From a virus, in the IMG/VR virus record IMGVR_UViG_3300028920_000002, positions 1-64,000 of that record: a stretch of DNA of 64,000 nt. One strand, given 5' to 3'. How positions within the stretch are numbered: position 1 is the first letter of the stretch; each line of letters starts with the position of its first letter. The notes beneath the pieces are model-generated. The model saw nothing but the letters and a program-made list of their open reading frames with translations, did not search any database and was not told the DNA's origin. Below, in pieces: positions 19,326 through 48,704 of this stretch. Made by a program: the position numbers and the translations under genes.

Positions 19326-19331
19326 ATAATT

Positions 19332-19359
19332 CTTATCCCCGACTGAGCATCAATTTTGC
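19332..19359 (-). promoter_or_regulatory. Class B promoter-like motif
   Basis: Minus strand ctGCAA aattgatgctcagtc GGGGATAAG, just downstream of a terminator. Confidence 0.6.
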
Positions 19360-19363
19360 AGCT

Positions 19364-19391
19364 AGAAGAAAGGCCACGTTGTTGTGGCCTT
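19364..19391 (-). terminator. Intrinsic terminator after VWA gene
   Basis: Minus strand AGGCCAC-aacaac-GTGGCCT followed by ttcttct. Confidence 0.6.
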
Positions 19392-19395
19392 CCCT

Positions 19396-20766
19396 CTACT
19401 CGAACTCGTCAACCACTGATTGTTCTTCAGTGCAGATGACGATGTGCCCCCAGTCGGCCGGCTTGCTACGCCATCGGCTGGGTACGATGCACCAGATAAC
19501 CGGAATGCCTTTGGGTGGCTTGTCCGGCGCGGAGCCGTCACCGTCAGTCAAGTAGATGATGACGTCGGGGCGTGGCTTCAGTTTGGCGGCTCGCGCTAGC
19601 GGTTCGATGAAACTAGTGCCGCCGCGGCCTACTGGGTCGAGCCTGGGAATGTCCTTTAGCCTCACCAGCTTGAAGCCGTACTGCTGCGTGTCTGCATCAG
19701 CCCACCAGACCTGCTCCACACCGGTCTGCTCCATCAATGCGATGGCTTCGTTGTTCGCCTCGTGCAGCTGTTTGGTTCCCATGGAGCCAGAAGTGTCTCG
19801 GATGAGGCAGGGTACCCACTGCTGGTCAATCATGCCGGGTCGTAGAATGCCCCGCAGCAGTGAGCGTTTGGAGGGGCGCCGCAGGGAGAAGTCGCTGCCG
19901 CCTGAGATAGCGATACCGGAGGCGCGCCGAACGATGCGGCTGAGCGTACGCTTCCAGTCGTTCTTGGACTTCTTCTTGGGAACGCTGTCCAGCAGCTGTT
20001 TTAGGTGTCCAGGTACGGAGCCGCGACCCTGCTGCTCGACGTGCTCCCGCACGGCGTGAACTACTTCTTCTCGGGCGGATTGAACCTCGTCTTTGCTCCG
20101 GCCGAGACCACGTGACTTCAGCTCGTCTTCGACGGGGTCGTTGCTTGCACCACCGCCTGCGGAGCCGCTTACGCCGGAGCATATGTCCCAGCGCATTCCA
20201 TCCTTGCCACCCTGGCCCTTCTGCTTGGAGGAGCTCTTGCCACCCTGGCCCTGGTCGTCTCCGTCCCCACTGCCAGGCGGACTTCCCATCAGCCGGTAGA
20301 CCTTCTTGGCGTCTGCCTTCAGCCGCTCGAGATACTGTTCGAGCGTCTCGCCATCTGGATAGCCGTACGAACCCGGGAAAGCACCCCATGAAGGCAACTT
20401 CACTCCGGCCTGTTGAAGCGGACCGTTGATGGCCAGGTCTGCCGCGAGGGTGACCAAGTTCTCATCCTCGCCTTGTTGCAGCAGCACCTCGATGCGCTCC
20501 ATGTGTTCCTGCACATGCCAGCACTCGTGGAAGAGTACGCCGGCCAAGGTCTCTGGGTCACTCAGCTCGGGGTCGTCTACAACTCGTATTGGGTCGACGG
20601 AGAGGATGCAATCTTTGCTGACCCCGAGAGTGTTCAGCCCTACGACGAATACGGGGACCAGCTTGTACTGAATCGCCGACATGTACGGCGCGAGTTTCTC
20701 GAGCTCAAGGCGGGCGAGCTCCAGTAGGTCGCCCGCCTTGTCCTCATAGTCGATAGCTGCGCTCAT
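19396..20766 (-). CDS. HExxH metallopeptidase-like + VWA domain protein (DUF2201-like)
   Basis: GVLFHECWH, DLAIN, RRPSKR, IRDTSGSM (MIDAS), GRGGTSF, IYLTDGDG. Confidence 0.85.
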   Translation of the reverse strand: MSAAIDYEDKAGDLLELARLELEKLAPYMSAIQYKLVPVFVVGLNTLGVSKDCILSVDPIRVVDDPELSDPETLAGVLFHECWHVQEHMERIEVLLQQGEDENLVTLAADLAINGPLQQAGVKLPSWGAFPGSYGYPDGETLEQYLERLKADAKKVYRLMGSPPGSGDGDDQGQGGKSSSKQKGQGGKDGMRWDICSGVSGSAGGGASNDPVEDELKSRGLGRSKDEVQSAREEVVHAVREHVEQQGRGSVPGHLKQLLDSVPKKKSKNDWKRTLSRIVRRASGIAISGGSDFSLRRPSKRSLLRGILRPGMIDQQWVPCLIRDTSGSMGTKQLHEANNEAIALMEQTGVEQVWWADADTQQYGFKLVRLKDIPRLDPVGRGGTSFIEPLARAAKLKPRPDVIIYLTDGDGSAPDKPPKGIPVIWCIVPSRWRSKPADWGHIVICTEEQSVVDEFE

Positions 20767-23815: not shown

Positions 23816-26800
23816 ATGGCGCGCCTAGACCCTAGTGAATCGTTCGCCGACTTCCGAGACCGCACGCTCGAGGGCATCCGTTCTCATTTCCCTGTCAAGG
23901 GAAGAACGCAGACGCTGGAGCTGGATGACCTGGAAGTCGATAGCGCAGGTATGGAGTCCGACGACATCCGTGGGCAGCATAGGGCTAAGGTAGAAGGCGC
24001 TAGTTGGAGTGCGCCGGTCTACGCCACTATGTCGCTGCGCGACAACGAGACGGGCAAGGCCAAGAAGCAGCGCATCAAGTTGGCTGAACTGCCGATGATG
24101 ACCAGGCGCTACAGCTACATCGTCAATGGCCAGGAGTATCAGGTCGACAACCAGTGGCAGCTCAAGCCGGGCGTTTACACACGCCGGCGCCAGAATGGTG
24201 AGCTCGAGTCTCGTTTCAACATCGTCAACAAGCCTCACTTCGACTTGAAGTTCGAGCCGGACAAGAAGCGCTTCTTGATGGAGCGTGGGAAGTCCAGCGC
24301 CATTCCTCTCTACCCGCTGATGAAGTCTCTCGGTATCAGCGACGACGACCTGGAGAAGACGTGGGGCAAAGAGATTCTCGAGCAGAACAAGGCAGCACGC
24401 GGCGTATCAGGCGCCCTAGAGAAATTCTACAAGGCGGACCGAAAGAAGTCGGCGCCGTCCAAGGAGGAAGCAGAGCGCTACTTCTACGAGACGATGATGC
24501 AGTCAGAGCTCCGTCCAGAAGCGACCAAGCGAACGCTGGGTAAGGAGTACAGCACTGTAGAGGGCGATGCCGTCCTGCGCGCCACGAAGCGGATGTTGGA
24601 GGTACAGAGTGGTGCCCCAGAGGACGACCGAGACTCTCTCGTCTTCAAGGACCTGCGCGGAGCAGGCGACTACGCGTTCGACCGACTGACAGACTACAAG
24701 ACGCGCCGTAGTCTGCAGGGCAAGATGGGGCGCCAAATCAACAACGCCAGAAGCATCCGCGACGTGATTCGTCCTGGAACCTTCGACGACCAGATTCGTA
24801 GGACCTTCACCGAGAACAAGGGCGCGACCCGCGTGCCGGAGCAAATCAATCCGGTAGAGATGATTGCTGGGTCACAGCAGACGACCGTTATGGGTCCCGG
24901 TGGCATTCAAAGCGAGAACGCCATCATGGATGAGACGAAGTTCATCAACCCGACGCACTTCGGGTTCTTGGACCCCATCCATACCCCGGAGGGCAACAAG
25001 ACTGGTGTGACGCTGCATCTGCCCATGGGAGTGAGCAAGAAGGGGAAGTCTCCGGTCATCCCGGTCTACAACCTGAAAACCGGCAAGGGTGAGCGCATCA
25101 CTCCTGAGCAGTTCATGGACTCTACAGTGGCGCTGCCCGACCAGATGAAGTGGAAGGACAACAAGCCCACTCCTGTTGGCAAGAAGGTCAAGGTATCCAC
25201 ACCCGGCAACGAGCTCGATGAGGTGGACCCGAAGGACGCGAAGTACGCGATGTACCATCCATCGCAGGCGTTCAGTATCACGAGCAACCTGGTTCCCTTC
25301 ATGGGGAACACCTCTGGCAACCGTGCCAGCTATGCCACGCACCACATCGAGCAAGCCATCAGCCTCAAGGACCGGGATGTGCCTCTGGTCCAGTCTGGTA
25401 CTGGTGGTCAGCGGGAGGGCCTACGTACCTTCGAGGAGCTGTTGGGTCGGGGCTCGTCGCATCCCTCGCCGATGGATGGCGAAGTAGTCAAGGTGAAGAA
25501 GGATGGCGTCATCGTTAAGGGCAAGGATGGCAAGACCCGAGAGATTCAGCTCTACAACAACTTCCCGCTCAACGATGCCAAGGCCGTCATCGACTCTACT
25601 CCGACGGTGAAGGTCGGCGATAAGGTGAAGCAGGGCCAGCCTGTTGCTGACACCAACTTCACCAAAAACGGCACGCTGGCATTGGGTAAGAACCTGCGTA
25701 CTGCCTATCTGCCATTCAAGGGCTACAACTTCGAGGATGGCGTAGTCATCAGTGAGAGCGCCGCCAAGAAGCTTACTAGTGTCCACATGCACAAGCCGGA
25801 CACCAGGGTCGCCGACAGCGACGTGACCGACCCGAAGAAGTTCCGGGTCTTTCACCCTGAAGCGTTCACGAAGGACCAGTACAAGCTGGTCGGAGATGAC
25901 GGTATCGTGCGTGTTGGCACAAGGGTGCAGAAGGGAGACCCCCTCGTACTCAATACCAAGCCCTATCAACTGCGCGACAGGACTGGTATCGCCGCTGTGC
26001 GCAAGAACGCCTCAGGTGCGCAGACCGACGCCTCATTGAAATGGGACTCGGACTACGCAGGGGAGGTGGTGGGCGTACACCGCGGAAAGAAGGGCCAGAT
26101 TGGCGTCCACGTTCGCACTGAAGAGCCGATGCAGGTCGGCGACAAGCTGACTGGGCGGCACGGCAACAAGGGCATCGTCACCAAGGTCATCCCTGATAAG
26201 GAGATGCCTCATACCAGAGATGGCAAGCCGATTGAGGTAGCGCTCAACCCCGCTGGCGTGCCCGGTCGTATGAATGTGGGTCAGGTGCTCGAGACTGCGG
26301 CGGCCAAGGTAGCTGAGAAGACTGGTAAGCCCTACATCGTTGAAAACTTCGAGCATGGCGTCGACCAACTCAAGCGGGTGAAATCCGACTTGAAGAAGCA
26401 CGGCTTGTCGGACACTGAAGAGCTCATCGACCCGAATACTGGCAAGAGTCTAGGTAACGTCCTCGTCGGTCCGCAGCACATGCTCAAGCTGCAGCATCAG
26501 GTAGACAAGAAGGCGTCGGCCCGCTCCGGTATGAGCCTCAAGGGTGAAGAGGGAGAGGGGTATGACTACAACCTGCAGCCGGTGGGTGGCAGCAAGACCG
26601 GAGCGCAGAGCGTAGGCAACTTGGGTATCTACACACTGCTCGCTCACGGCGCCAAGGCCAACATCCGAGAGATGCAGACCTGGAAGAGCGAGGGCGAGGA
26701 TACCAGCCCGGAGGGGAAGCGTTGGGCGTCTCAGCACAATGAGGTCTGGCGCGCCATCCAGAGTGGAGACCCGCTGCCGCCACCCAAGCCAACGTTCGCC

Positions 26801-29800
26801 TTCCACAAATTCACCGAGATGTTGAAGGCGGCTGGCATCAACGTTGAGAAGCGTGGCAACACCATGCAGCTCAACCCGCTCACCAACCAGGACATCCTGA
26901 ACATGTCAGCGGGGGAGCTCTCGAAGCCAGCGGACCGGCTTCGCCAGGGCAAGCTCGATGAGAATGGCGACCCCATGCCCATGAAGGGAGGGCTGTTCGA
27001 CCCGAAGCTCACCGGTGGGCACGGTGGGAAGAAGTGGACGCACTTCAAACTGGCAGAGCCAGTTCCGAATCCGGTCTTCGAGGGAGCCATCCAGCGGCTG
27101 ACTGGGCTCACCGGTAAGCAGTACGAGTCAGTCGTCAACGGTGAGCAGTCCATCGACCTCAAGACGAGGAAGGTCGTACCTCTTGGCAAGGGCGCGACGG
27201 GAGGCCCCGCCATCAAGAGCATGCTCGATGGCATCGACGTGAACAAGGAGCTGGAGCAGTCCATGAAGGAGCTGGAGGCGGTGAAGCTGCCTTCTGGATT
27301 CGCTCACGGCGCCAGCACCACGAAGCTCGACAAGGCGATGAAGAAGGTGAGGCACCTTCAAGTCCTCAAGGACAAGAAGATGAGCCCCTCCGACGCCTAT
27401 ATGCTGGAGAACGTACCGGTCATCCCGCCGGCGATGCGCACGGTCAGCGTGCTGAAGGACGGCGGCGTTCGCTGGGGCGATTTGAACCAGCTCTACTCCG
27501 ACCTCGCCCAGACCAATGGCGAGATGGGCAAGATGAAGCAGCGCTCCTACTTCGGCGACAAGGACCTGAAGGACAGTCGAAAGGATGTCTACGATGGGCT
27601 TCGCGCTTTGGTAGGTATTGGTTCCTCGCCGGCTGAGAAGGAGGCCAAGAACAAGGGCGTGCTGCAACAGATTGCTGGCAGTCAGCCGAAGAAGGGCTAC
27701 TTCCAGAACACCCTGATGAACCGTCGTCAGGACATGAGCATGCGCTCGACCATCGTTCCTGAGCCGGCGATGGGGTTGGATGAGGTGGGCATTCCTCAGG
27801 AGCATGCACTCAAGCTGTTCCGTCCGTTCGTCGTCAAGAAGATGATGGACATCGGCGTGGCTCCAACTGAGTTGGATGCTCAGCACATGCTGGCCGAGAA
27901 GAAGAAGGATAAGGGGGTGTGGCGGGCGCTGGACTTGGCGATGGAGGACCGGCCGGTTCTGATGAAGCGTGACCCCGCACTGCACAAGCATTCGATGCAG
28001 GCGTTTCGCCCTTACCGTACGAGCGGGCACGCTATCAAGATTCATCCGCTGGTGACCAATGGCTACAACGCTGACTTCGATGGCGACACCATGAGCATGT
28101 TCGTCCCCATCTCCAAGGAGGCAGTGGACGAAGCCAAGCAGATGCAGCCGTCGAACAACCTGTTCAACGAGGCGCAGGGTAAGGTTACCTACACTCCGAC
28201 CTTGGAGAGTTCATTAGGCTTGTACAAGATGAGCCGCGTGCGTGGTGATGGTAAACAGCAGTACAAGAACCCCACCGACGTGCTCAAAGCCGTGGAGGCG
28301 GGCAAACTGCCGATGGACGAGCTCGTCACCGTCGGTAAGATGAAGACTACTGGTGGCCGCATCATGCTCTCCTCCGCGCTGCCTAAGCCGCTGCAGAACA
28401 AGATGCTGACTGACCACAAGTTCGTCCTGGACAAGAACGGCGTTCATCAGCTCTACACAGACTTGGCGAAGAACCATCGTGCGGACTTCGGAGAGGCGGC
28501 GAACAAGCTCAAGGACTTTGGTTTCGACGCTTCCTACGGCTCAGTACGCGTGGCACATCCACAGCACAAGGGACCCAACGCCATCGCGGCTATGGAGAAC
28601 CCGAAGCAGAACGTCAAGTTCCTGCCGATGGGAGCGCATACCTTGTCGCTCGACGACCTGGAACCCGACCGTGAGGTCCGAGACCGGGAAATCGCCAAGG
28701 CGCAGAAGCAGGTGGACAAGATTCGCTCCATGAAAGGACTGTCCAAGCTCGAGCGCGACCGGCGCAGCGTAGCCATCTGGGAGAAGGCGGATGCCGACAT
28801 CGCTCGGAAGCATGTAGGTCGCGCTGAGGCTAGAGATGACCGCCTGCACCAGATGTTGGCGGCCGGCACTAAGCCAAGTTGGTCTCAGTACAAGCAGCTC
28901 AAGCTCGCGCCGATGGTAATGCAGGATGCGGCTAACCGGGACATCCCGACGCCCATCAAGCACTCCTACTCAGAGGGCCTCGACATGGGCGAGTACTGGA
29001 CCGGGATGCATGGCGCTCGGCGAGGTACGGTCCTCAAGGTTCAGGAGGTGCAGGAGCCCGGCTACTTCTCCAAGCAGCTCATCAACACCACGATGAACAT
29101 GGTGGTGAACAAGGATGACTGCGGCACCAAGCGGGGCATAGCGGTTCCGGTCGGCTCGAAGGATATCTACGACCGTGAGTTGGCAGCGCCGGTAACAGTC
29201 AAGGGAAAGACCTTCAAGCCGGGCACGATTCTGGGACCGGACCTGGTCGCTCAGATTCGCTCCCACGACAAGAACGCGCAGCTCGTTGTACGGAGCGCGC
29301 TTCGCTGCGAGCACGGTGATGGCCTCTGCCAGCACTGCGCCGGCCTGTCCGCCGACGGCACCTACTACAAGAAGGGCTCGAATCTGGGTGTGCTCTCTGC
29401 CCAGTCATTGGGTGAGCGCGCCGTGCAGCTGCCGATGAAGATGTTCCACAGCGGCGGCGTCAAGCAGGGCGGACGGGGCGGAGTGGTCGGTATGTTCGAC
29501 CGCACCAAGCAGCTGACTGAGCTGCCCAAGAAGATTCCAGACGCCTCAACCCTGGCCATGCACTCGGGTACCGTCGACAAGGTAGAGCGGGACCCCACCG
29601 GCACGAACGTATGGATTGGTGGGCAACGACATCACGTGCCGAAGGACCGCTCTGGTATGCCTCTGCACATTCCCTTGCCAGGTGAGAAGGTCAAGGGTTG
29701 GCAGCCACCTAGAGTAGGGATGAAGGTGGAGGCCGGCCAGTCACTTAGCGACCCCACCCGCACCTTCGTGAATCCGCACGACCTGTACAAGGCCACGCGT

Positions 29801-30271
29801 AGTATGGAGAAGGTGCAGAACCATCTAGTCAACGAGCTTCACGGCATCTACTCTGAAGAGGGCGTGCGCCGACAGCACATCGAGACCGTCGTGAAGGCTA
29901 TGGGTAATCTCACCCGCGTAAGGAATCCAGGAGACGCGCAGGGTATTTTGAAAGGCGAGTACCAGCCGACGTCCAGGTTGCGGGAGCTCAATCGTCAGTT
30001 GTCCCGACAGGGCAAGAAGCCCGTGCAGCACTCACCCATCCTCAAGGGCATCGACGTGATGCCACTCACCGTCCAGGAAGATTGGATGGCGAAGCTGAAC
30101 TACGCTCAGCTCCAGAGAACGCTCACGGAAGGAGCTGCGATAGGAGCGAAGTCGCATCTGCACGGTACTCATCCCATCCCTGCGGCAGCCTACGGCGCCG
30201 AGTTCGGTTTGACTGAGAAGCACAAGAAGAAGTATCCGCACTTGGCCAAAGTCCCCTCCTGGTCCTACTGA
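23816..30271 (+). CDS. rpoBC: Single-chain fused beta-beta' DNA-directed RNA polymerase
   Basis: Beta motifs GYNFEDG, GDKLTGRHGNKG, LNPAGVPGRMNVGQ, LKLQHQVDKK; beta' motifs GLFDP, PVIPP, RPVLMKRDPALH, YNADFDGD, CEHGDGLCQHC, AQSLGE..QL.MKMFH; no internal stop. Confidence 0.95.
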   Translation: MARLDPSESFADFRDRTLEGIRSHFPVKGRTQTLELDDLEVDSAGMESDDIRGQHRAKVEGASWSAPVYATMSLRDNETGKAKKQRIKLAELPMMTRRYSYIVNGQEYQVDNQWQLKPGVYTRRRQNGELESRFNIVNKPHFDLKFEPDKKRFLMERGKSSAIPLYPLMKSLGISDDDLEKTWGKEILEQNKAARGVSGALEKFYKADRKKSAPSKEEAERYFYETMMQSELRPEATKRTLGKEYSTVEGDAVLRATKRMLEVQSGAPEDDRDSLVFKDLRGAGDYAFDRLTDYKTRRSLQGKMGRQINNARSIRDVIRPGTFDDQIRRTFTENKGATRVPEQINPVEMIAGSQQTTVMGPGGIQSENAIMDETKFINPTHFGFLDPIHTPEGNKTGVTLHLPMGVSKKGKSPVIPVYNLKTGKGERITPEQFMDSTVALPDQMKWKDNKPTPVGKKVKVSTPGNELDEVDPKDAKYAMYHPSQAFSITSNLVPFMGNTSGNRASYATHHIEQAISLKDRDVPLVQSGTGGQREGLRTFEELLGRGSSHPSPMDGEVVKVKKDGVIVKGKDGKTREIQLYNNFPLNDAKAVIDSTPTVKVGDKVKQGQPVADTNFTKNGTLALGKNLRTAYLPFKGYNFEDGVVISESAAKKLTSVHMHKPDTRVADSDVTDPKKFRVFHPEAFTKDQYKLVGDDGIVRVGTRVQKGDPLVLNTKPYQLRDRTGIAAVRKNASGAQTDASLKWDSDYAGEVVGVHRGKKGQIGVHVRTEEPMQVGDKLTGRHGNKGIVTKVIPDKEMPHTRDGKPIEVALNPAGVPGRMNVGQVLETAAAKVAEKTGKPYIVENFEHGVDQLKRVKSDLKKHGLSDTEELIDPNTGKSLGNVLVGPQHMLKLQHQVDKKASARSGMSLKGEEGEGYDYNLQPVGGSKTGAQSVGNLGIYTLLAHGAKANIREMQTWKSEGEDTSPEGKRWASQHNEVWRAIQSGDPLPPPKPTFAFHKFTEMLKAAGINVEKRGNTMQLNPLTNQDILNMSAGELSKPADRLRQGKLDENGDPMPMKGGLFDPKLTGGHGGKKWTHFKLAEPVPNPVFEGAIQRLTGLTGKQYESVVNGEQSIDLKTRKVVPLGKGATGGPAIKSMLDGIDVNKELEQSMKELEAVKLPSGFAHGASTTKLDKAMKKVRHLQVLKDKKMSPSDAYMLENVPVIPPAMRTVSVLKDGGVRWGDLNQLYSDLAQTNGEMGKMKQRSYFGDKDLKDSRKDVYDGLRALVGIGSSPAEKEAKNKGVLQQIAGSQPKKGYFQNTLMNRRQDMSMRSTIVPEPAMGLDEVGIPQEHALKLFRPFVVKKMMDIGVAPTELDAQHMLAEKKKDKGVWRALDLAMEDRPVLMKRDPALHKHSMQAFRPYRTSGHAIKIHPLVTNGYNADFDGDTMSMFVPISKEAVDEAKQMQPSNNLFNEAQGKVTYTPTLESSLGLYKMSRVRGDGKQQYKNPTDVLKAVEAGKLPMDELVTVGKMKTTGGRIMLSSALPKPLQNKMLTDHKFVLDKNGVHQLYTDLAKNHRADFGEAANKLKDFGFDASYGSVRVAHPQHKGPNAIAAMENPKQNVKFLPMGAHTLSLDDLEPDREVRDREIAKAQKQVDKIRSMKGLSKLERDRRSVAIWEKADADIARKHVGRAEARDDRLHQMLAAGTKPSWSQYKQLKLAPMVMQDAANRDIPTPIKHSYSEGLDMGEYWTGMHGARRGTVLKVQEVQEPGYFSKQLINTTMNMVVNKDDCGTKRGIAVPVGSKDIYDRELAAPVTVKGKTFKPGTILGPDLVAQIRSHDKNAQLVVRSALRCEHGDGLCQHCAGLSADGTYYKKGSNLGVLSAQSLGERAVQLPMKMFHSGGVKQGGRGGVVGMFDRTKQLTELPKKIPDASTLAMHSGTVDKVERDPTGTNVWIGGQRHHVPKDRSGMPLHIPLPGEKVKGWQPPRVGMKVEAGQSLSDPTRTFVNPHDLYKATRSMEKVQNHLVNELHGIYSEEGVRRQHIETVVKAMGNLTRVRNPGDAQGILKGEYQPTSRLRELNRQLSRQGKKPVQHSPILKGIDVMPLTVQEDWMAKLNYAQLQRTLTEGAAIGAKSHLHGTHPIPAAAYGAEFGLTEKHKKKYPHLAKVPSWSY

Positions 30272-31506
30272 TGGGTCTCAAAGAGAACAAATTCTTCGAC
30301 CCGCTATCCTGGCGAAGCTTCGCTCATGGGGGCTGGTCTCAACCCGAGGGGTCCATCCCAGCCTACATACACGAGGCCAGGGTCATCGATGTCAATCTGA
30401 CCAACTGGACCATCGATTGCCACACCATCTTCGACCAGAAGATGTTCTTGGACGTACAGGTCGCCTCCCCCTACATGCACCCAGCTCGCGGAGAGGGGAT
30501 GTATGTCATCCCGGAAGTTGGTGCGAAGTGCCTCATCTGTATTCCATCGGATGGGCCTCCGCCGTTCGTCTTGGCCTTCCTAATGCCGATGGAGACCAAG
30601 ACCAAGACCACTGCCGTCACCGACCCCATCGAGGCGAATGACTCGAACGCCAGCTTTGGCGGTGGGCGCAAACGCCCCAAGCCCGGAGACATCGTCGTTC
30701 AGGGTCGTGACGGGAACTTCATGCGGCTCCACCGTGGAGGGGTTGCGGAGTTTGGAGCCAGCCAGTTGGCCCAACGCATCTGCATTCCGCTCGGCAACCT
30801 CGTCACGGACATCAGTCAGAACTACAACCACTTCAACTCTGGCGGGGCCATCAACTGGGGCGTCCGAGATGGTGGTACGAGCAACCCGGAGTCGGAGTAC
30901 AGACACACCATTCGTGTGTTCGCGGATGACGAGTACGCGGACATGCGCTTCGCCATGGGCAAGTTGAAGCGCCCGGTGGCTGAGCCAGTAGGAGAAGACG
31001 GCGAGACCTCGAACTTGGAGCAGCTCGGTATCGGAACTACCGAGGACATCGTGTTCGAGATGGTACTTGCGCCCGGTGGGTTCGATGGTGGAAACGGCGA
31101 CCAGAAGGATGTGAAGGAAACTCGAGACCTGACCAAGCTGCGCATCTTCTTCGACCGCGGTGGCAACGCCATGGCTCGCTTCGAGGGAGCTGTGGATATG
31201 CGTGTGAAGAAGCGACTCAAGCTGACGGTGGACGAAGACATCGACATCATCGGCAAGAAGCGCATCTCCATCGAGGCCACGGAGATTCTGCGCCTGATTG
31301 GCCAGAATGGTCTCGAGCTTGGTACGGGTGGTGGAGTCACAGCCATCAACGGTGGTACGAAGGCTGTTGCCTACGTAGGCTCTCCAGTGACTGTTACCGT
31401 CCCCCCAGGGCTTCTGGTTACTACACCCGGAGGTGAAGGCTTCGTGAACCCAGGTCAGACCTTCACCGGATTCATCACGCTCGGCAACTCTACCATTCTC
31501 GTCTGA
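30271..31506 (+). CDS. Baseplate hub/spike protein (gp5/gpV-like OB fold)
   Basis: ARVIDVN..VASPY..GEGMYVIPEVGAKC, then beta-rich repeats. Confidence 0.7.
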   Translation: MGLKENKFFDPLSWRSFAHGGWSQPEGSIPAYIHEARVIDVNLTNWTIDCHTIFDQKMFLDVQVASPYMHPARGEGMYVIPEVGAKCLICIPSDGPPPFVLAFLMPMETKTKTTAVTDPIEANDSNASFGGGRKRPKPGDIVVQGRDGNFMRLHRGGVAEFGASQLAQRICIPLGNLVTDISQNYNHFNSGGAINWGVRDGGTSNPESEYRHTIRVFADDEYADMRFAMGKLKRPVAEPVGEDGETSNLEQLGIGTTEDIVFEMVLAPGGFDGGNGDQKDVKETRDLTKLRIFFDRGGNAMARFEGAVDMRVKKRLKLTVDEDIDIIGKKRISIEATEILRLIGQNGLELGTGGGVTAINGGTKAVAYVGSPVTVTVPPGLLVTTPGGEGFVNPGQTFTGFITLGNSTILV

Positions 31507-32164: not shown

Positions 32165-34357
32165 ATGGAACTGTTCATCCAGCCCGAGACCTACTTGGAG
32201 AAGACCGCCGGCGAAGTGGAGCTGCCGGAAGACCCCAACATGTGGCCCCAGGAGGTGCTGCAGGAGCTGTTCAAGCAGGTCCCGTACATCTCGGACTTCC
32301 AGCCCCACGTCGTCATGGACAAGGTGGACGCCGAGCAGGGCTATGGTCTCGGGCACGTCGAGATTGCCAACCAGAGCGAGGCGCAGGTCACCGCTGAGCC
32401 GGAGATGGCCGAGGCGGCGGGCATCCGCACGGTGCGCATCCCGGTGGTCATCCGAGAGGGCAAGCTCACACCTTTCGACCTGCTCATCAACGACAACGGC
32501 AAGATTCTCCCGCTCACCGAATCCCGCATCCGGCAGGCCCTCTTCCGCCCGCAGGCATTCGACGTCACCAGCAAGACGCCGGGCGACCAGAGCATGATTG
32601 GGCAGCTCTACCCTCCGTACCGTCAGAACTACGGTTTCGGGCGCACTGGTACTGGCGTAGTGACTGGAACCGGACTCGGGAAGATGGGGTCTGCGCTCGA
32701 CGCGTACTTGACTGCGGAGCTCGAGAAGACTGCGCAGAGAGCCCAAGTACCTGAACGACCCAAGTCGGACTTTCAGTTTCATCGGTTGGAGAAGAAAGCT
32801 TCCATCCTCGAGTCCATTCTCCCAACGCTCAACCGGACGGACTTCGACAGCTTCTGGGAGAAGGTCAGCAGTGACCACAGCCTTCAGGCGCAGTTCCGTC
32901 ACAACGCTGACGCTACGCAGGGGGCGCTCTGTCTGCTGGCCAACCACGAGCCCATCACGCTGGAGAAGACGGCCAGCGCGTTGGCTGAGGTGGTCAAACC
33001 TACTGTCGCTCAGGTCACGAAGACGGTCGATGGCTATCTGGTGAAGACCGCCAGCCACCTCTACTGGAAGCCGCAGACCAGGCTCCTGAACCGCGGGGAG
33101 GTGATTCAGGAGTTCGGTGAGAAGGTGGCTCTGGCGGCGGATGAATCCGGCGGCGTCACGCTGGCCGAGGGTGCCGACGCCGAGGACGCCGAAGGAGCTC
33201 TGGACCAGGAGGAGCCCATCAGCGTTTCGGACTCTGGCCTCTACAAGGTCTACGACGATACCGGCAAGGAGCTGGTGGGCTTCGTCATCCCCAACCTGCT
33301 CGACACCGACGGCACCCCGCTGCCGCTGAGCCTGTTCACCAACGGTTCTCAGACGGCGGTGCAGGACGATATCCAGGGGGTGCCCGCCGGCGACGGCGTG
33401 AATCTGCCCACCGCCCAGCCCGGCGGACGGGGAGCCTTCTTCTCCGTCACCGACGAGGGCAGCGTTCAGGCCACTGTCCCCCTCGTTTTGGGTGGGTCCT
33501 ACGCCACGGGTGACGGTCAGACCGTCCTGAACGGACAGACCTTTGACGGGCGCCCGGTGGAGGTCAGCGTCCAGTCGAACATCCAGACCGTCATGGGCAC
33601 GCCCGAGGGGCGGATGCTGGTGCCGGAGAGCTGGCAGTGGACTCCGATGTCTGATGAGCAGGTCTCCTTGTACGGAGGCGACGTCGGGGAGCAGCCTGAC
33701 GAAGGCGACGACGAGCAGCTGCAGCAGGCTTTCGGCGCCGAGAACGAGGGTGAGGCAGCTCCCCAGCAGGAGGAGCAGGCTGAAGAGAAGCAGAGCTCGG
33801 CCTTCATCTGGGTCCGCTCCGGCGGCCCGGACACCTTCTCCGTCAGCGGTCCGGCGCTCGAGAAGCTGGCCTACAGCGAACGGGAGTCGTTGAGTCTGGA
33901 TGACGCCATGTTCCTCCTGGCGGGCCTTGGTGTGTCACAGGCGTATGGCGTCAAGAAACTGGCGCACGCCTGTTCAGGGGCCAACCCGGAACGCGTGCGG
34001 ATTGGGCGCATCATCAAGACCGCGGCCGAGGTGGATGCCTGGTCCAGGGAGCGCGCACAAGCTCTGCACTCGGTGGTCCCACGGCTCAAGCAGGACCTGG
34101 TGAAGGAGGCCGCGCTCATCCCCAATCCGTCGGCCGTTGACACCGTACTCAGCCTGGGCTTCATCAACCCAGAGAACATCATGACGTTCGTAGGCTACCT
34201 GCCGGACATCGACGGCGCGCAGGGCAAGCTCTGCGAGTTGCTGCTCGCTTCCCGCCTCGGCATGGACGACATCCCAGCTTCGGCACTAGAGCGGGCAGTC
34301 CGCTCCGTCGAAGAGACCATCGAAGGTCTGAAGGTCCTCGCGTTCCAAGGAGGCTGA
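32165..34357 (+). CDS. Putative internal head protein with about 10 K-x-A sites
   Basis: EKTAG, EKTAQ, EKKAS, EKTAS, VKTAS, EKVAL, EKLAY, KKLAH, IKTAA, VKEAA. Confidence 0.65.
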   Translation: MELFIQPETYLEKTAGEVELPEDPNMWPQEVLQELFKQVPYISDFQPHVVMDKVDAEQGYGLGHVEIANQSEAQVTAEPEMAEAAGIRTVRIPVVIREGKLTPFDLLINDNGKILPLTESRIRQALFRPQAFDVTSKTPGDQSMIGQLYPPYRQNYGFGRTGTGVVTGTGLGKMGSALDAYLTAELEKTAQRAQVPERPKSDFQFHRLEKKASILESILPTLNRTDFDSFWEKVSSDHSLQAQFRHNADATQGALCLLANHEPITLEKTASALAEVVKPTVAQVTKTVDGYLVKTASHLYWKPQTRLLNRGEVIQEFGEKVALAADESGGVTLAEGADAEDAEGALDQEEPISVSDSGLYKVYDDTGKELVGFVIPNLLDTDGTPLPLSLFTNGSQTAVQDDIQGVPAGDGVNLPTAQPGGRGAFFSVTDEGSVQATVPLVLGGSYATGDGQTVLNGQTFDGRPVEVSVQSNIQTVMGTPEGRMLVPESWQWTPMSDEQVSLYGGDVGEQPDEGDDEQLQQAFGAENEGEAAPQQEEQAEEKQSSAFIWVRSGGPDTFSVSGPALEKLAYSERESLSLDDAMFLLAGLGVSQAYGVKKLAHACSGANPERVRIGRIIKTAAEVDAWSRERAQALHSVVPRLKQDLVKEAALIPNPSAVDTVLSLGFINPENIMTFVGYLPDIDGAQGKLCELLLASRLGMDDIPASALERAVRSVEETIEGLKVLAFQGG

Positions 34358-34358
34358 G

Positions 34359-35870
34359 GTGGCCGAAGGTTTCGGCCGACTCATTGGGGGCGTGAAGGCC
34401 GAGCTTGGCTACGGCCCGGCACTGCCTAAGCCCACGGAGGAGGAGAAGCGTGAGGCTCTGCAGCGCGCGGAGGAAATCAGGCGCACTGTCGGCAAGCGGT
34501 ACAACGTCTCCCCCTATCTGGCTGGGTCGCTAGCCACCGGCTTGAACATTCCTGGGCAGCACGACTTCGACTACGGGGTACGCGTTACCTCCAAGCCGAA
34601 GTTCGACAAGCTGGTCAATCGTTTGCAGCGGGCCGAGGGAGTGAAGACCTCTCCATACAATCAGACTGGTACGGACTACCACGTCTTCACCACCAGTGTT
34701 GGGGGCGAGCCCGTGGACTTGGCTGTCATGTATGGGGACAAGGGCAAGCTGCAGCGGCAGGCGATTCAGCGGGCTCAGAACCTCAGTCAGGACGAGAAGG
34801 ACAAAATCATTGCTGAGAAAGCGCGGCTCTCCAACGTCCTGTTCTTTCAGAAGCAGCGCAAGAAGCGCTTCAAGCGACAGGTAGACGCGCAGCTCGGTCT
34901 ACCGCGCTTCGGTAAAGAGAAGGTGGGACGTGTTGTGACCGACCAAGAATGGAGGCGACTCGCTACTCGCCCTACTGTGTTCGGCCATCGCACGAACAAC
35001 ATCGAGCCCATCATGCAGTCTCAACGACTGTTGAGCGCCGCTGATGCGGCGAAGAGGGGAGCGCTGAAGAGCTACGAGACGGGGACGGGTCGTGGGAGCC
35101 GCGAGCGCTCTGATTTGAGTGAGCGTAGAGGCGAGCGCAAGATGCTCCGCTCAGAGGTCTTCATGAACAAGGGCGGATTGATGCCCCCCAGCGAAGCGTA
35201 TGGACAATACGGCGTGCTCTTCGAGAAGCAGAAGGCCGCGCCCTCGAAGTACCTCAACGCCGTACCTCGAGAGCACACGGCAGAAACGGTGAAGAGCAAG
35301 CTCACTTACGTTGTGCCTGACAAGGAATTCGCGAAGTGGAATCGTAAGTTCCCTGACCGGAAAATCATGCGCGAGTCACACGTGCCGGAGCATATGAGGC
35401 TGCCAGGCAAAGACCGCGGAGAGCTCATCCAGAGAATCCTGACCGGACCCAAGCTCTACGAGAAGAAGGAAGAGGTCAAGATTGGTGGAGCACTGGCCAA
35501 GAAGAAGGGGCTGCGCCGGGTGGGGCAGCTCCTCAGTGGTTCCCGAATGAAGGCGTTGGAGGAGCGGGCTGCTGGTCTGGAGTCCCCATTTCGACGGCGC
35601 GCCCAGCGTGCGCTGGAGCCTGTCCGAAGTAGCGGGATGAAGAAGCGCCGTATAGAGGAGAGCCTCGGGCGCGTGAAGTCCAGAGGTAGGGTTGAATCCG
35701 CGCTGAAGGCCGAGCAGGAAGCAGTACAAAAGGCGAGAAAGACCACCAAGACTGTTGGGGGTGTGGCTGCTGGACTTGGGGCCGCGGCGCTTGGTGCTGG
35801 GGCGTTCAGCAAAGCCATGAAAGAGCCGGACTACGCGGCGATTGCGGCCGAGCAGCGCGCAAAGGCTTGA
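34359..35870 (+). CDS. Nucleotidyltransferase (Pol-beta superfamily) + ART-like domain + basic glycine-zipper tail
   Basis: AGSLATGLNIPGQHDFDY..EPVDL; FGHRTNNIEPIMQSQRLLS..VFM..YGQYGVLF..REH; tail VGGVAAGLGAAALGAG. Confidence 0.65.
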   Translation: MAEGFGRLIGGVKAELGYGPALPKPTEEEKREALQRAEEIRRTVGKRYNVSPYLAGSLATGLNIPGQHDFDYGVRVTSKPKFDKLVNRLQRAEGVKTSPYNQTGTDYHVFTTSVGGEPVDLAVMYGDKGKLQRQAIQRAQNLSQDEKDKIIAEKARLSNVLFFQKQRKKRFKRQVDAQLGLPRFGKEKVGRVVTDQEWRRLATRPTVFGHRTNNIEPIMQSQRLLSAADAAKRGALKSYETGTGRGSRERSDLSERRGERKMLRSEVFMNKGGLMPPSEAYGQYGVLFEKQKAAPSKYLNAVPREHTAETVKSKLTYVVPDKEFAKWNRKFPDRKIMRESHVPEHMRLPGKDRGELIQRILTGPKLYEKKEEVKIGGALAKKKGLRRVGQLLSGSRMKALEERAAGLESPFRRRAQRALEPVRSSGMKKRRIEESLGRVKSRGRVESALKAEQEAVQKARKTTKTVGGVAAGLGAAALGAGAFSKAMKEPDYAAIAAEQRAKA

Positions 35871-37526: not shown

Positions 37527-39323
37527 ATGGCGGCTGAACAAGTCTACGTCGAACCAGAGGATGAGTGGGACGATAGTTGGTTCGACGACCGCATATGGAC
37601 ACCAGAGCCCGAGATTGTAGAGCAGCCGCTCGTCATACGTCAGAAGCGGAAGAAGCTGCCGAGAATACCGGAGGTTAGACCTTCGGACTTCACCGCCTTC
37701 GCCTTCCGCATGCCGAGGGAGGACGAAGAAGGGCGCATCGTCATCGACAACTTCTCGTTCGAGGGTCGCCGTCATCTGCGCCGTATATACGACACTCCCG
37801 CTAAGAAGCTGCTGCTCATCTGTGGTCGACAGGTCGAGAAGTCCACACTGCTGGGGAACATCGCTCTCTGCTACATGAGTCTAGTGCAGGGCTACCGCGT
37901 CTTGTACGTCAGCCCTTCTGCAACGCAGACGAAGACGTTCAGCAACGACCGAGTCAAGGAGCCGATTGAGACCAGTCCGATTCTCAAGAAGTTCACGACT
38001 CACATGCTGTCGCAGAACATCTTCGAGAAACAGTTCATCAACCGCAGCAAGATTACGATGCGGTACGCATTCCTCAATGCGGACCGAGCTCGAGGTATCC
38101 CCTCGTACATGCTGGACGTCGATGAGTTGCAAGACATCCTCGGAGACAACCTGCCGGTTCTCGAAGAGTGCCTCAGCCACGCTCCCGACCGTTGGAAGAG
38201 ACAGGTCTACTCAGGAACGCCCAAGAGTCTCGATAACACCATCGAGCAGTACCGCGTAAAGCGCTCAACGCAGAGTGAGTGGGTGGTGCCACACAACTGT
38301 AGAGGAGGAGAGGGAGGTCGCTTCTGGAACATCCTTGGTGAGAAGAACATCGGGCTGAAAGGTCTCATCTGTGAGAACTGCGGCACTCTCATCGACCCCA
38401 TGTGTGACGACGCGCAGTGGGCCTGCATGGTCTACCCCAGCGACAAGGTGGACTTCGAGAGCTACCGAATCTCTCAATTGATGGTGCCTTGGGTACCCTG
38501 GATTGACGTCCTCACGAAGTATCGGAACTACGGGCGCGACCGGTTCTACAACGAGGTGTTGGGGCTGAGCTATGACTCGGGGCTACGCCCGCTCACCATG
38601 CAGCAGGTGAAGGACCGATGCATGGACCACATCACCATGTCTGCAGTGGAGGCGTATCGGTCCAGAGCCTACACCACTCCGGTCTTCGCCGGCATCGACT
38701 GGGGTACTGGAGAGCACAGCTACACCGTCGTCTTCTTGGGCACCTACGTCGACATGCAGTTCCGCGTCTTCTTCGCTCACCGATTCACTGGTGAGGAGAC
38801 TGAACCCGAGCTGCAAATCAAGCGCATCATCGAACTCCTGCGGTACTTCAACGTCCGGCTCATCGGCTGCGACTATGGTGGCGGGTTCGCCATGAACCAC
38901 CGGCTCATTCGAGAGTTCGGAGCCGACAAGGTTCATCAGTTTCAGTATCTGGCACGAACCACCGGTAAGAAGGTGCAGTGGGACCCCAAGATGGGCCGCT
39001 GGAAGATTGCACGCACCGAAGTGATGAGCGACATCTTCAACGCCATCAAGCGCAACAAGTGCGAATTTCCTCGGTGGGAGGAGTTCGAGGAGCCTCACGG
39101 CAGTGACATGCTGAACATCTACTCGGAGTACAACGAGAAGCTCCGCATGATTCAGTACGACCACTCCCCCGACAACCCAGACGATTCCTTCCACGCGTTC
39201 TTGTACTGCTGGTTGGTGAGCATGCTCATCATCCCACGTCCTGACATCGTCGCGCCGACGAAGGAGGACCCACGTACTGGAATGCCCATGCAGAACTTCG
39301 CAGGTCCGGTAGACCAGAGCTAG
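37527..39323 (+). CDS. terL: Terminase large subunit (GpA-like)
   Basis: FSFEGRRHL..ICGRQVEKST, LDVDELQD, YSGTPK, FYNEVLG, AGIDWG, IGCDYG, PDDSFHA. Confidence 0.9.
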   Translation: MAAEQVYVEPEDEWDDSWFDDRIWTPEPEIVEQPLVIRQKRKKLPRIPEVRPSDFTAFAFRMPREDEEGRIVIDNFSFEGRRHLRRIYDTPAKKLLLICGRQVEKSTLLGNIALCYMSLVQGYRVLYVSPSATQTKTFSNDRVKEPIETSPILKKFTTHMLSQNIFEKQFINRSKITMRYAFLNADRARGIPSYMLDVDELQDILGDNLPVLEECLSHAPDRWKRQVYSGTPKSLDNTIEQYRVKRSTQSEWVVPHNCRGGEGGRFWNILGEKNIGLKGLICENCGTLIDPMCDDAQWACMVYPSDKVDFESYRISQLMVPWVPWIDVLTKYRNYGRDRFYNEVLGLSYDSGLRPLTMQQVKDRCMDHITMSAVEAYRSRAYTTPVFAGIDWGTGEHSYTVVFLGTYVDMQFRVFFAHRFTGEETEPELQIKRIIELLRYFNVRLIGCDYGGGFAMNHRLIREFGADKVHQFQYLARTTGKKVQWDPKMGRWKIARTEVMSDIFNAIKRNKCEFPRWEEFEEPHGSDMLNIYSEYNEKLRMIQYDHSPDNPDDSFHAFLYCWLVSMLIIPRPDIVAPTKEDPRTGMPMQNFAGPVDQS

Positions 39324-40045
39324 TCGTCGAAGTCGATGTGGCTCAGGATGCGGTCATGGATGTCGCATCCAGTTTCCGGGAAGCGTTTGGTGGCCTCCGG
39401 TAATCCGTGCTTGGTACGGATGTAGAAGTAGGCAGCGTGGCGTAGACTACGTCTTCCCGCATCTAACCACCCATAGGCGATGCGCGTCATAGGCTCAGCA
39501 TCGAGTAGTTCGATGGGGCAGTTGACCGTGAGCTTATTTGCTAGCTCCAAGAAAGGCTCCCACGGTTCATCCTTGCCCAGAACCTTCTCGATGAGCGCGA
39601 AGTACTCTTCGCCGATGGCCATGAACACCTTGGCCCAATTCAGAATCTCGTCGGCATCAGTGATACGTCGGTCTTTGTACTCGTGGACCTTGAGCCACAT
39701 CGAGACGACCGAATCCTCGTCGAGCTGAAGCGGAGGTACACCGGCTCCACACATCTGCTCTAGGATGTCCACGCGCCGTTCGAGTGCGCGGGCGGTGGCG
39801 AACGCCTGAGCGGCGGTGACTGACACTTCAGGTAGGGTCACTCCTCGCCGGCGCGCCTCGGCCAGGGCGGACACTTCCTCCGACCAATACATCCTGGGCG
39901 CATTCAGCCTCTGTCCTGTAGGATAGTGGGGTCGGAGCATTCCTTGGCGCGCGAGTTGCATCACCTGGTGGACACTGACCCCGAGGACCTCTGCGGCCTC
40001 CTCGGGAGGAATCAGGCGGTTGCTTCCCATGACCTTGACCGACAT
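39320..40045 (-). CDS. MerR/excisionase-type HTH protein with coiled coil
   Basis: LIPPEEAAEVLGVSVHQVMQLARQGMLRP; ARALERRVDILE. Confidence 0.75.
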   Translation of the reverse strand: MSVKVMGSNRLIPPEEAAEVLGVSVHQVMQLARQGMLRPHYPTGQRLNAPRMYWSEEVSALAEARRRGVTLPEVSVTAAQAFATARALERRVDILEQMCGAGVPPLQLDEDSVVSMWLKVHEYKDRRITDADEILNWAKVFMAIGEEYFALIEKVLGKDEPWEPFLELANKLTVNCPIELLDAEPMTRIAYGWLDAGRRSLRHAAYFYIRTKHGLPEATKRFPETGCDIHDRILSHIDFDD

Positions 40046-40080
40046 GGTACTTCTTTTGTGCACGGCTGAAAGAGGTTCTG

Positions 40081-41736
40081 ATGCACGACCTTCCATCCAT
40101 CACCCTTCTGCAGCAGGCTCACGCAGTCCCCAAGACCGGAGAAGAACTCGAAGTTCTCGGGAAGACCGCGGCTTGTAGGTATGAATCGGGTGAGTGCTCC
40201 AGTCTCAGCGATGCTGTGGTGGAGACCGTCAAACACGCCGGCCTCTCCCCGGAGCAGGTGAAACGGGTCACCGAGTTCACCAACCAGGCGGCGTACCTCA
40301 ACGAGTTCCGCAAGCTGGGGAGCAACCACAAGTACATCGAGTTCGACGGCGGCCCGGCCGACCCCGGCGCTGTGTTGAAGGACCTCAACGATGGGAGTGG
40401 CGGCACCGTCTTCGACCGTGGCGTCCTCGACTACGCCTCCCAGCCGTCGACTCCTGTGAAGACCGCATCCGTGAAGCGCAACATGGCTCGGCTGGAGAAG
40501 GTGGCTCAGCGCTTCATGAGCGATGCGGACTTGGCACAGTTCGCTGGCATGCAGCCGATGGGCATGGAGAATTGGCGGGACAACCCCATGTATCAGAACC
40601 AGCGGAAGCTGCAGCAGGTGGCGATGCTCAGTGCCATGACCGGCCGGCAGCCCATCAAGGTCGCTGCTGCTGAAGAGAAGCCGTTGCCCGGTAACGGGCT
40701 CGGTGAGCGAGGGAGGGGCGCTCCAGGACCGGGTTCTGGGTGTGACCAGCCGGGACGTCGGCTTGGGCAGAGGGGCGAGGTCCCCCGTAAGTTTAGGCAC
40801 CGCGCTGCGGATTTGTCGGCGGTGCAGCTCGCTGGTGAGCGGAAGCAGTCGTCGGCCGAGCTCGACTTCAACCCGGCCGAAGCCGCCTTCGAGGACATGT
40901 TCCGAGCCGACGGGCCGGAGACTGAGCCGTACCACGAGCCCATGCAGGACACGCTCGACATGAGGGAGAAGCTCGCCGGCGCGCGGGACCACCTGACGGG
41001 TGAGCTCGGAGGGCTCGAGCTCGCCTTCGGCGAGGTCCTCGAGGACATGTACCAGCAGGTCAAGCAGGCGGCGCTGCAGGGCGCGACGCTCGGCCAGGTA
41101 ATTCGTGCCTGGAACGACGTGGTCCCCGGGCCGGAGTACGTGAAGACCGCCTTCGCCCACATCGGCCCGCGCCTGCATGAGGAGGGAGTCTTCCCCTCCC
41201 TCGACTCCATCGGCGAGTCGCTCACCAAGACTGCGGCCACTGGGCTGGTAAACCACAGTCACCCTTTGGTCCAGTCCATGGCCGCGTATATCACCGTGCT
41301 CGATAAGCTGGCTCATGTGCGCGCAGCACGGGATGAGCTGGCTCAGGAGTTCGAGCGCATCGATTGGTTCGCCAAGCGTGCAGCTCCGACCGCTCAAGGG
41401 CTCAACATCATGAAGCGGATGGCCCAGAGTGGAGGGCTCATCCCAAAAGTGACGGGCGCTGCCAGGCGAGCGGGTGAAGCTGTAGCTCCTCGGGTGCAGC
41501 AGGTGGGGGAGGCCCTCCTAGGCGCCGGCTCTCCAGCCGCTGCGCAGATGGGGCAACTCGCTGGCGGCGCCGTCAAGTACACCCCGCATGCCGTTGCCGG
41601 ATTGGCCGGCCTCGAGGCGTACCAGCGCGCCAAGTACAACCCGGCCTTCCAGACGGCGAAGAACGCCCTGCTCGGCCGCATTCCCTACACCCACCCCTGG
41701 CAAGTTCGGCAGTACCAGCTGCAGATGGGAGCATGA
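40081..41736 (+). CDS. Putative head assembly/internal protein with about 10 K-x-A sites
   Basis: GKTAA, VKTAS, EKVAQ, IKVAA, EKLAG, VKQAA, VKTAF, TKTAA, DKLAH, AKRAA; glycine-zipper C-terminus. Confidence 0.65.
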   Translation: MHDLPSITLLQQAHAVPKTGEELEVLGKTAACRYESGECSSLSDAVVETVKHAGLSPEQVKRVTEFTNQAAYLNEFRKLGSNHKYIEFDGGPADPGAVLKDLNDGSGGTVFDRGVLDYASQPSTPVKTASVKRNMARLEKVAQRFMSDADLAQFAGMQPMGMENWRDNPMYQNQRKLQQVAMLSAMTGRQPIKVAAAEEKPLPGNGLGERGRGAPGPGSGCDQPGRRLGQRGEVPRKFRHRAADLSAVQLAGERKQSSAELDFNPAEAAFEDMFRADGPETEPYHEPMQDTLDMREKLAGARDHLTGELGGLELAFGEVLEDMYQQVKQAALQGATLGQVIRAWNDVVPGPEYVKTAFAHIGPRLHEEGVFPSLDSIGESLTKTAATGLVNHSHPLVQSMAAYITVLDKLAHVRAARDELAQEFERIDWFAKRAAPTAQGLNIMKRMAQSGGLIPKVTGAARRAGEAVAPRVQQVGEALLGAGSPAAAQMGQLAGGAVKYTPHAVAGLAGLEAYQRAKYNPAFQTAKNALLGRIPYTHPWQVRQYQLQMGA

Positions 41737-47576: not shown

Positions 47577-48704
47577 ATGAGCAGCGTCGTTTCACCGCGA
47601 ATGCTGAACGACCTCTTCGCGCAGAAGCTGAACACGCAGGAGGGCAAGGAAAAGATTGCCCAGTACGGCGGCAGCTACATCCGCGACCGGCTACGCGAGG
47701 TCAGCTTCGCACGCAAGATTCTTCCGCCGGAGCAGGTCACGCGCAACGACTGCCAGCGGTCCACGAACCACGACACCCTCGTGAAAATCGTGGACATCGA
47801 GCCGCAGTCCCGCGCGATGGCCATCACGTTCCGGGGGCAGCCCTCCGCCCGCTTCATCCGCGCGCCCCGCGCGGAGTGCGCGTTCTTCACCATCAGCTCG
47901 GAAATCTTCCAGAAGACCGAGCAGGAACTGCTGGCCTACGAGATGCCCATCACCAAGGTCATCGAGGAGAACAGCGTGAAGGACATCCAGGAAATCGAGG
48001 ACCGCGAGTTCCTGCTGCACATCGAAGCGGCCGTGCAAGCCCTGCAGACCGAGGCCAATGGCGGGACGCCGACGGCGCTCAACAACACGGCCATCGGCAC
48101 GACGGTCGAGTTCAGCGTCCGCAAGGGCGAGCTGGCTCGGGCGTCCGGCGTGGGCGACGACGCCGTGGTGCGGCCCATCCAGCGGGTGGACATCGTCAAC
48201 CTGTTCAAGATGCTGGACGGGAATCGGCTGCGCGCCGAGCGCATGCTGATGACCGAGGTCGACTACGACGACATCCTTCAGTGGACCGTCGAGGACCAGG
48301 GCGACCGCATCCAGTCGGAGACCACGGTCGACGGCTACAAGTACAACACGCTGCTCGGGCGTGCGTACATCCGCACCATCAAGACGGACCTGCTTCGACC
48401 GGGCAACGTCTACATCTTCACCGCTCCGCAGTTCTTCGGCCGGTTCTTCATCCTGAACCAGACCAAGTTCTACATCGACAAGGTCGCCAACCTCATCTCC
48501 TGGCAAGCCTGGGAGGACATCGGCATGCTGGTGGCCAACATCGCGTCGGTGCGGAAGATGGAGCTGTACTCGGCGGACGCCAACCCGTCCACCGACGCCG
48601 ACAGCCTCCTCGCCAACTTCATTCCGAAGGAGGAGGAAGAACTGGGAGCGGTCAACAACCGCGTCGACTCGGGACTCAAGTTCCCGCAGGTCGTCCAGTT
48701 CTAG
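47577..48704 (+). CDS. Major capsid protein (HK97 fold)
   Basis: IRDRLREVSFARKILPP, strongly biased codons, AAGGAG RBS, followed by a terminator, follows protease/scaffold. Confidence 0.82.
   Translation: MSSVVSPRMLNDLFAQKLNTQEGKEKIAQYGGSYIRDRLREVSFARKILPPEQVTRNDCQRSTNHDTLVKIVDIEPQSRAMAITFRGQPSARFIRAPRAECAFFTISSEIFQKTEQELLAYEMPITKVIEENSVKDIQEIEDREFLLHIEAAVQALQTEANGGTPTALNNTAIGTTVEFSVRKGELARASGVGDDAVVRPIQRVDIVNLFKMLDGNRLRAERMLMTEVDYDDILQWTVEDQGDRIQSETTVDGYKYNTLLGRAYIRTIKTDLLRPGNVYIFTAPQFFGRFFILNQTKFYIDKVANLISWQAWEDIGMLVANIASVRKMELYSADANPSTDADSLLANFIPKEEEELGAVNNRVDSGLKFPQVVQF

Follow-up and report, generated by a model that had tools for sequence, protein, structure and literature searches.

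Phage polyvalent proteins are strings of unrelated effector domains that are predicted to be carried in the virion and injected; ADP-ribosyltransferases (ARTs) are their commonest modifying domain, with InPase, SNF2 and peptidase domains as typical partners (PMC5512222). The location of phage ART genes near portal and terminase genes is a recognised signature of head packaging (PMC9503650; PMC5512222), and about 44% of phage ARTs are found in head-packaging contexts (PMC9503650). Such head ARTs are thought to be first-line weapons, few of which have known targets. The gene described here lies in a 64,000-nucleotide stretch of viral DNA (the window), comprising positions 1-64,000 of the complete 186,723-bp IMG/VR record IMGVR_UViG_3300028920_000002, which has direct terminal repeats. 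It occupies 34359-35870 on the + strand, begins with GTG 1 nt past the stop codon of an upstream 730-aa gene, and encodes a 503-aa protein in which a nucleotidyltransferase (NTase) domain, an ART domain and a tail follow one another. The protein belongs to the known theme of head-associated ARTs and polyvalent effectors, to which it brings an H-Y-E ART family without a model and, as its obligate partner, a GrpB-like NTase. Our overall explanation, which we hold with moderate confidence, is that the paired NTase and ART, probably virion-borne, modify a macromolecule of the host.

The likeness to polyvalent proteins lies in the union of at least two unrelated effector domains (NTase and ART, with the tail), to which homologues add SNF2, InPase and C39 domains. 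The differences are that ARTs of polyvalent proteins are of H-Y-D type (Tox-ART-HYD2/N4-like; PMC5512222), whereas that of the 503-aa protein is H-Y-E, has no Pfam model and is tied to an NTase, and that the zincin peptidase hub is not present. T4 Alt is likewise an ART made with the late and virion genes of a myovirus, and has been proposed as a model for DNA-coupled delivery. Alt, however, belongs to the R-S-E clade, has no NTase partner and is cut by gp21 at L/I-x-E; the R-S-E active site of Alt and VIP2 is not found in the NTase-ART protein. DarTG is a cellular toxin paired with the DarG macrodomain/NADAR antitoxin, whereas here the setting is a phage and the partner an NTase, with neither Macro nor NADAR detected in the complete genome. 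As in MuF-toxin fusions of the SPP1 gp7 type, the effector gene comes right after a putative portal gene, the slot that such fusions occupy (PMC9503650); the MuF domain (Phage_Mu_F) itself gave no match at E ≤1 in the 503-aa protein.

Two enzyme domains in one chain

The NTase domain (34431-34913, + strand; residues ~25-185) is of Pol-beta type with a GrpB-like predicted fold. It carries the catalytic motif G56-S57-x11-D69-F-D71 (34524-34571, +) and a third catalytic carboxylate, D120, in the sequence EPVDL (34716-34718, +). These positions are nearly fixed in the family alignment (G56 in 101 of 102 sequences, S57 in 99 of 102, D69 in 107 and D71 in 108 of 109, D120 in 104 of 110), and G56, S57, D69, D71, D120, K154 and K172 are each retained in at least 94% of ~110 homologous NTase domains. 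Searches of the whole protein against Pfam, PHROG and NCBIfam gave sub-threshold NTase matches only, and nothing for the ART part: NTP_transf_2 (PF01909) matched at 14.7 bits (E 0.04), below its gathering cut-off of 21 bits. The same model gave sub-threshold matches in nine of ten close homologues and 16 of 48 relatives, and one relative, P0020, scored 23.2 bits. A first AF2 model, built from 10 sequences, was poor (predicted local distance difference test, pLDDT, 54.7), with a usable NTase part (pLDDT ~70). Foldseek queried with the NTase model returned exclusively Pol-beta NTases, and the model has the alpha-beta-alpha-beta-beta-beta core that resembles those of solved NTases. The fold is like that of GrpB/UPF0157 (PDB 2nrk, 6n39); weak similarities in sequence lead elsewhere, to NTP_transf_2, DUF4269 and CD-NTases, and the GrpB family model PF04229 found no match at E ≤1, so that the resemblance to GrpB is one of fold alone. 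In a PDB profile search alignment A1 yielded nothing and alignment A2 weak CD-NTase matches at the GS/DxD region (E 0.02), a hint of a distant link to the CD-NTases. By its model, then, the N-terminal domain is an active-looking GrpB-like Pol-beta nucleotidyltransferase. To our knowledge no substrate has been established for GrpB, and the association described below gives GrpB-type NTases a concrete functional partner. Several NTases of the family also match, weakly, models in PADLOC for the oligonucleotide cyclases of CBASS (best E 9e-5).

The ART domain follows at 34926-35483 (+; residues 190-375). Its H-x-T motif, H210-R-T212 (34986-34994, +), lies in the first ART strand (18-23 of the domain model); Y281-G282 (35199-35204, +) supplies the tyrosine of the H-Y-E triad, and E305 (35271-35273, +), the candidate catalytic glutamate, opens strand 116-119. 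These residues stand within recognisable blocks: FGHRT...LLS at residues 208-226, VFM at 267-269, YGQYGVLF at 281-288 and E305-H306. Conservation across the family is close to complete, with H210 in 68 of 68 sequences, T212 in 67 of 69, Y281 in 99 of 100, G282 in 100 of 100 and E305 in 101 of 101. The domain has no match among Pfam, PHROG, NCBIfam, PADLOC or PDB-sequence models, and the ESM Atlas gave no informative match. Refolded alone from a 48-sequence alignment it produced a good model (pLDDT 92.4; predicted template modelling score 0.86) in which the split beta-sheet of the ART fold is present. Foldseek E-values with this model were non-significant, and the ART call rests on VIA-align, in which nearly all of the top 50 matches among 48,161 chains were ADP-ribosyltransferases. 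The matches include TreX, Scabin, pertussis toxin, PARPs, Arr, LT, pierisin, diphtheria toxin and exotoxin A.

The H-Y-E arrangement is the ARTD-class pattern and is common to DarT2 (PMC11543638), in which the triad is H/Y71/E160 as against H210/Y281/E305 here. The H-Y-[EDQ] clade comprises NADases and enzymes that modify macromolecules, whereas the KptA clade, of RNA-repair ARTs, is H-H-h (PMC9503650). Tpt1/KptA proteins, besides their H-H-h site, have an N-terminal RNA-binding lobe, whereas the H-Y-E family described here lacks that lobe and aligns with residues 110-230 of yeast Tpt1. The conserved triad and the predicted strands thus make the second domain a DarT-like ART of the H-Y-[EDQ] clade; the DarT model PF14487 matched one of 48 family members, at E 0.18, and not the 503-aa protein, and PADLOC reported no DarT or defence-system ART. 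Both folds had been proposed in an earlier sequence-only reading of this DNA, and both calls are borne out, by Foldseek for the GrpB-like NTase and by VIA-align for the ART. The motifs on which that reading relied (the NTase signature, KEKVG, H-x-T, VFM, YGQYGVLF, EH, EVKIG and the basic glycine-rich tail) all lie where it had placed them, and the residues it took to be catalytic are conserved throughout the family.

An obligate pair and its borders

The exhaustive HMMER search gathered 125 cluster representatives, and domains were mapped on 133 proteins, these plus the close homologues. The NTase precedes the ART in 41 of the 133 and follows it in 40; 17 proteins have the ART only, 28 the NTase only, and seven are partial. 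That the domains are linked in both orders points to a joint function, and their distribution argues for an obligate functional pair, hence for joint action. The sequence-only reading had pictured two effectors sharing a chain; that they act independently is not supported by this coupling. An ART locked to an NTase in about 80 clusters, in either order, points strongly, on genomic grounds, to a joint reaction.

The family is remote from catalogued phages. The phage itself is myovirus-like and distant from cultured ones, no GenBank terminase being more than 29% identical to its own. A tblastn search of 50,697 GenBank phages found nothing for the 503-aa protein, the upstream 730-aa gene or protein P0036, and matched only a permuted form (P0052), in cultured Vibrio phages; a pattern scan of IMG/VR found a single fragment. 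The permuted ART-NTase arrangement is present in the 187-kb Vibrio phages D69, D181 and D148, whose version shares 34% identity with P0052. The D69 (L015) gene, at 18858-19850 of OZ195729.1, bears the label hypothetical protein and closes the late block, coming after the endolysin gene. The presence of the module in cultured phages makes its activity, target, packaging and processing directly testable.

Beyond the pair itself the proteins vary by exchange of modules. C-terminal to the ART, homologues carry SNF2, InPase (PF18823), Peptidase_C39 or glycine-zipper segments, and in P0012 and P0019 inserts of 200-330 residues separate NTase from ART; modules are thus exchanged at the very borders where the sequence-only reading had proposed to look for swapped cargo. 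The most telling case is P0015, in which one chain holds an NTase-ART part 44% identical to the product of the 34359-35870 gene, followed by SNF2 and InPase. The genome analysed here has its own InPase (PF18823, E 3e-29) and SNF2 in a single 1332-aa frame, outside the window (171268-173238), and the P0015 SNF2 is 59% identical to the 171.8-173.2 kb segment, its InPase 57% identical to the 171.3-171.8 kb segment. Because P0015 unites orthologues of both, it serves as a Rosetta stone linking the NTase-ART protein to the SNF2-InPase polyprotein of the same phage. SNF2 and InPase stand in reversed order in the 1332-aa frame relative to P0015 and P0101, whose N-termini hold the NTase-ART part and whose C-terminal parts share 57-59% identity with the modules of the frame. 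Glycine-zipper modules are fused to the pair in P0022, P0027 and P0012 and encoded next to it in L012 and L004, where small glycine-zipper proteins lie just 3' of permuted ART-NTase genes (L012, 2459-2773; L004, 9267-9776). The L012 protein has a weak, below-cut-off match (E 0.006) to the C-terminal part of P22 gp7, an ejection protein. Judged by these fusions, the NTase-ART pair is part of the pool of polyvalent-protein modules of large phages, together with SNF2, InPase, peptidase and glycine-zipper segments.

The borders between modules are marked by a short motif, K-x-[AGS]. In the 503-aa protein it appears between NTase and ART as KEKVG (34914-34928, +; residues 186-190, K188-x-G190), K188 being invariant in close homologues, and again after the ART as EVKIG (35472-35486, +; residues 372-376), which comprises the last ART strand and K374-x-G376 and at which the close homologues end. 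The sequence-only reading had remarked on this motif at both borders, and the observation extends to the family. Of 87 sequences, 79 have K-x-[AGS] in the 30 residues upstream of H-x-T, against a mean of 32 and a maximum of 45 in shuffles and 23 for the reversed motif; among extended proteins, 22 of 24 have it within about 15 residues after the ART (shuffle mean 11.6, maximum 16). Its distance from H-x-T varies from 4 to 26 residues, and such variable spacing is more in keeping with a linear signal than with a fixed element of the core. P0012, of 721 aa, has KTA at residues 199-201, 373-375 and 535-537, the junctions that divide NTase, glycine-zipper module, a module of no known kind and ART. 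At the N-terminus most colinear homologues have a leader of the form (D/E)(L/F)xK(L/I)(A/S/G), and many permuted proteins begin MITKTA. On this pattern the K-x-A/G/S motifs are probably processing or capsid-docking signals, and they may amount to a code for cargo processing or docking that a broad set of uncultured phages shares. This K-x-A motif is also found in the major head protein (47577-48704), as GKEKIA at residues 23-28 (47643-47660), and could be the site at which a short N-terminal propeptide is removed.

Placement among virion genes and rival explanations

Several strands lead us to read the protein as virion-borne: late-gene placement, polyvalent-protein partners, glycine-zipper partners and the known theme of head ARTs. 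The gene lies between the 730-aa gene (32165-34357, +), a putative portal gene conserved in relatives by synteny, and the gene for the terminase large subunit (37527-39323, +; phrog_675, E 4e-55; PF05876). Three relatives (L001-L003), whose homologues are 42-54% identical, conserve this position and have the same gene order. Elsewhere, in L006, L007 and Vibrio phage D69, the NTase-ART module ends the late block. The sequence-only reading had put the gene inside a virion operon. This is borne out in part: terminase, major head protein and tail sheath (56157-59330) are recognised in the window and no + strand promoter-like or terminator-like match occurs between 30000 and 40200, but the identity of the 730-aa gene as portal was not confirmed. 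On its gene position the NTase-ART protein most likely travels inside the capsid and enters the cell along with the DNA.

The gene would then be expressed together with the packaging and virion genes, and its product would enter the cell with the phage DNA and act early after DNA entry. With NAD+ as donor, the ART would ADP-ribosylate some macromolecule of the host, and the NTase would transfer from a nucleoside triphosphate to that substrate or to one linked with it. The DarT/Tpt1-like fold, and SNF2 as a recurring partner, would make a nucleic acid, or a protein bound to DNA or RNA, the favoured target of the ART. Folds, catalytic residues, pairing, module exchange and motif enrichment are what the analysis shows; that the protein is packaged, cleaved and injected, and what it acts on, we infer. 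OAS-type NTases can 2'-adenylate ADP-ribose. One elaboration, which we think rather unlikely, is that ART and NTase act in sequence on one substrate: the ART would put ADP-ribose on a nucleic acid or protein of the host (or of the phage), and the NTase would add a nucleotide to that ADP-ribose or to the adjacent end. The composite mark would resist host macrodomain and NADAR erasers, and fused InPase would drive the reaction by removing pyrophosphate.

The tail of the protein had been given a larger part in the sequence-only reading, as the device through which the effectors are loaded. It is a basic helical segment (35484-35867, +; residues 376-503) with 30 K+R against 12 D+E, and includes a hydrophobic Gly/Ala-zipper helix (35751-35807, +; residues 465-483; Kyte-Doolittle mean 1.49). 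All nine of the closest homologues (359-393 aa) lack it, their chains stopping no more than about 10 residues from the last E-x-V strand. These tailless homologues have the same neighbours, their next gene beginning ~45 nt downstream. Being present in one lineage and absent from the closest homologues with the same gene order, the tail cannot be a general loading device, and that part of the proposal is not supported. As to where the tail came from, a displaced piece of the next gene was ruled out, since that gene is orthologous over its full length to its counterpart in the relatives (43% identity), as was a paralogue of another gene, since whole-genome tblastn gave nothing below E 0.03.

Some observations tell against a virion-borne, processed protein. 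The module of L004 and L005 is surrounded by non-structural genes (SNF2, 2H, Nudix and PTH2). The portal identity of the 730-aa gene is without support from Pfam, PHROG, PDB, the ESM Atlas or GenBank phages, none of which gave a match. Models for Peptidase_S78, S77, S49, ClpP and C39 run against the 186.7-kb genome revealed no prohead protease; a maturation protease, if there is one in this complete-rated genome, escapes those five Pfam models. In the 503-aa protein the leader motif of its relatives is degenerate (GGVKAELG, within the N-terminal segment at 34359-34430, +; residues 1-24), and K188 occupies a homologous alignment column, so that its conservation could be structural and not that of a cleavage signal. 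The first three of these points are equally what would be expected if the two-enzyme module were real and unpackaged, a soluble early or late enzyme of the infected cell serving host shut-off, counter-defence or superinfection exclusion, with K-x-A a mere linker or N-cap. We regard this as possible, if somewhat doubtful. Against it stand the conserved slot within the packaging array in this clade, the place that the module takes as the last gene of late blocks in other phages, the recurring glycine-zipper partners, which resemble ejection proteins, and fusion to InPase and SNF2, typical of polyvalent proteins predicted to be virion-borne (PMC5512222).

Two other schemes assign the pair a different task. 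The Tpt1-like side of the ART fold, with the 2H and Nudix neighbours seen in some relatives, recalls the healing of nucleic acid ends: a KptA/Tpt1-like ART would strip 2'-phosphates or cap 5'-phosphates with NAD+ and the NTase re-extend the 3' end, repairing RNA or tRNA cut by anticodon nucleases of the host. The active site is nevertheless H-Y-E, where KptA-clade enzymes have H-H-h, the structural match is confined to the NAD-binding lobe of Tpt1, its RNA-binding lobe being absent, and 2H and Nudix, like Macro and NADAR, were not detected in the complete 186.7-kb genome; end healing is in our view quite unlikely. The strict coupling of the domains in either order would also be expected of a toxin restrained in cis. 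MntA-type NTases neutralise a partner toxin by nucleotidylation, and the NTase here might similarly silence a DarT-like DNA-modifying ART until release; alternatively the pair might modify the phage's own incoming DNA for its protection, as proposed for P1 DarB. The DarT-like fold, the faint similarity of the NTase to minimal NTases and CD-NTases and the recurrence of SNF2 partners, as in DarB-like polyvalent proteins, lend themselves to such a scheme. Yet the NTase is a 160-aa GrpB-like domain and not a minimal MNT, the genome has no detectable eraser of ADP-ribose (Macro or NADAR) to undo marking of its own DNA, and InPase partners favour high-flux nucleotidyl transfer over a regulatory switch. 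We consider self-restraint or self-marking very improbable, and return to joint modification of a host macromolecule by a virion-borne pair as the explanation we prefer.

Surrounding genes

At 23816-30271, upstream of the packaging genes, one 2151-aa frame of the window encodes a fused beta-beta' RNA polymerase, with beta and beta' motifs and PHROG RNA polymerase matches throughout. It lies directly 5' of a gp5-like gene (30271-31506; a weak assignment). Relative L003 has a counterpart of 2214 aa in the same place, with Pfam Rpb2 and Rpb1 domains.

Right after the terminase gene the + strand array of packaging and virion genes is broken by a lone - strand gene (39320-40096), which encodes a weak HTH_17/MerR-like helix-turn-helix and has a counterpart at the same place in relatives.

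Among relatives, genes for 2H phosphoesterase or Acb1-like proteins lie near or adjoin ART genes on two unrelated contigs (L004, 9776-10462; L008, 3521-3808), and Nudix genes are found near the NTase-ART module in L005 and L006.

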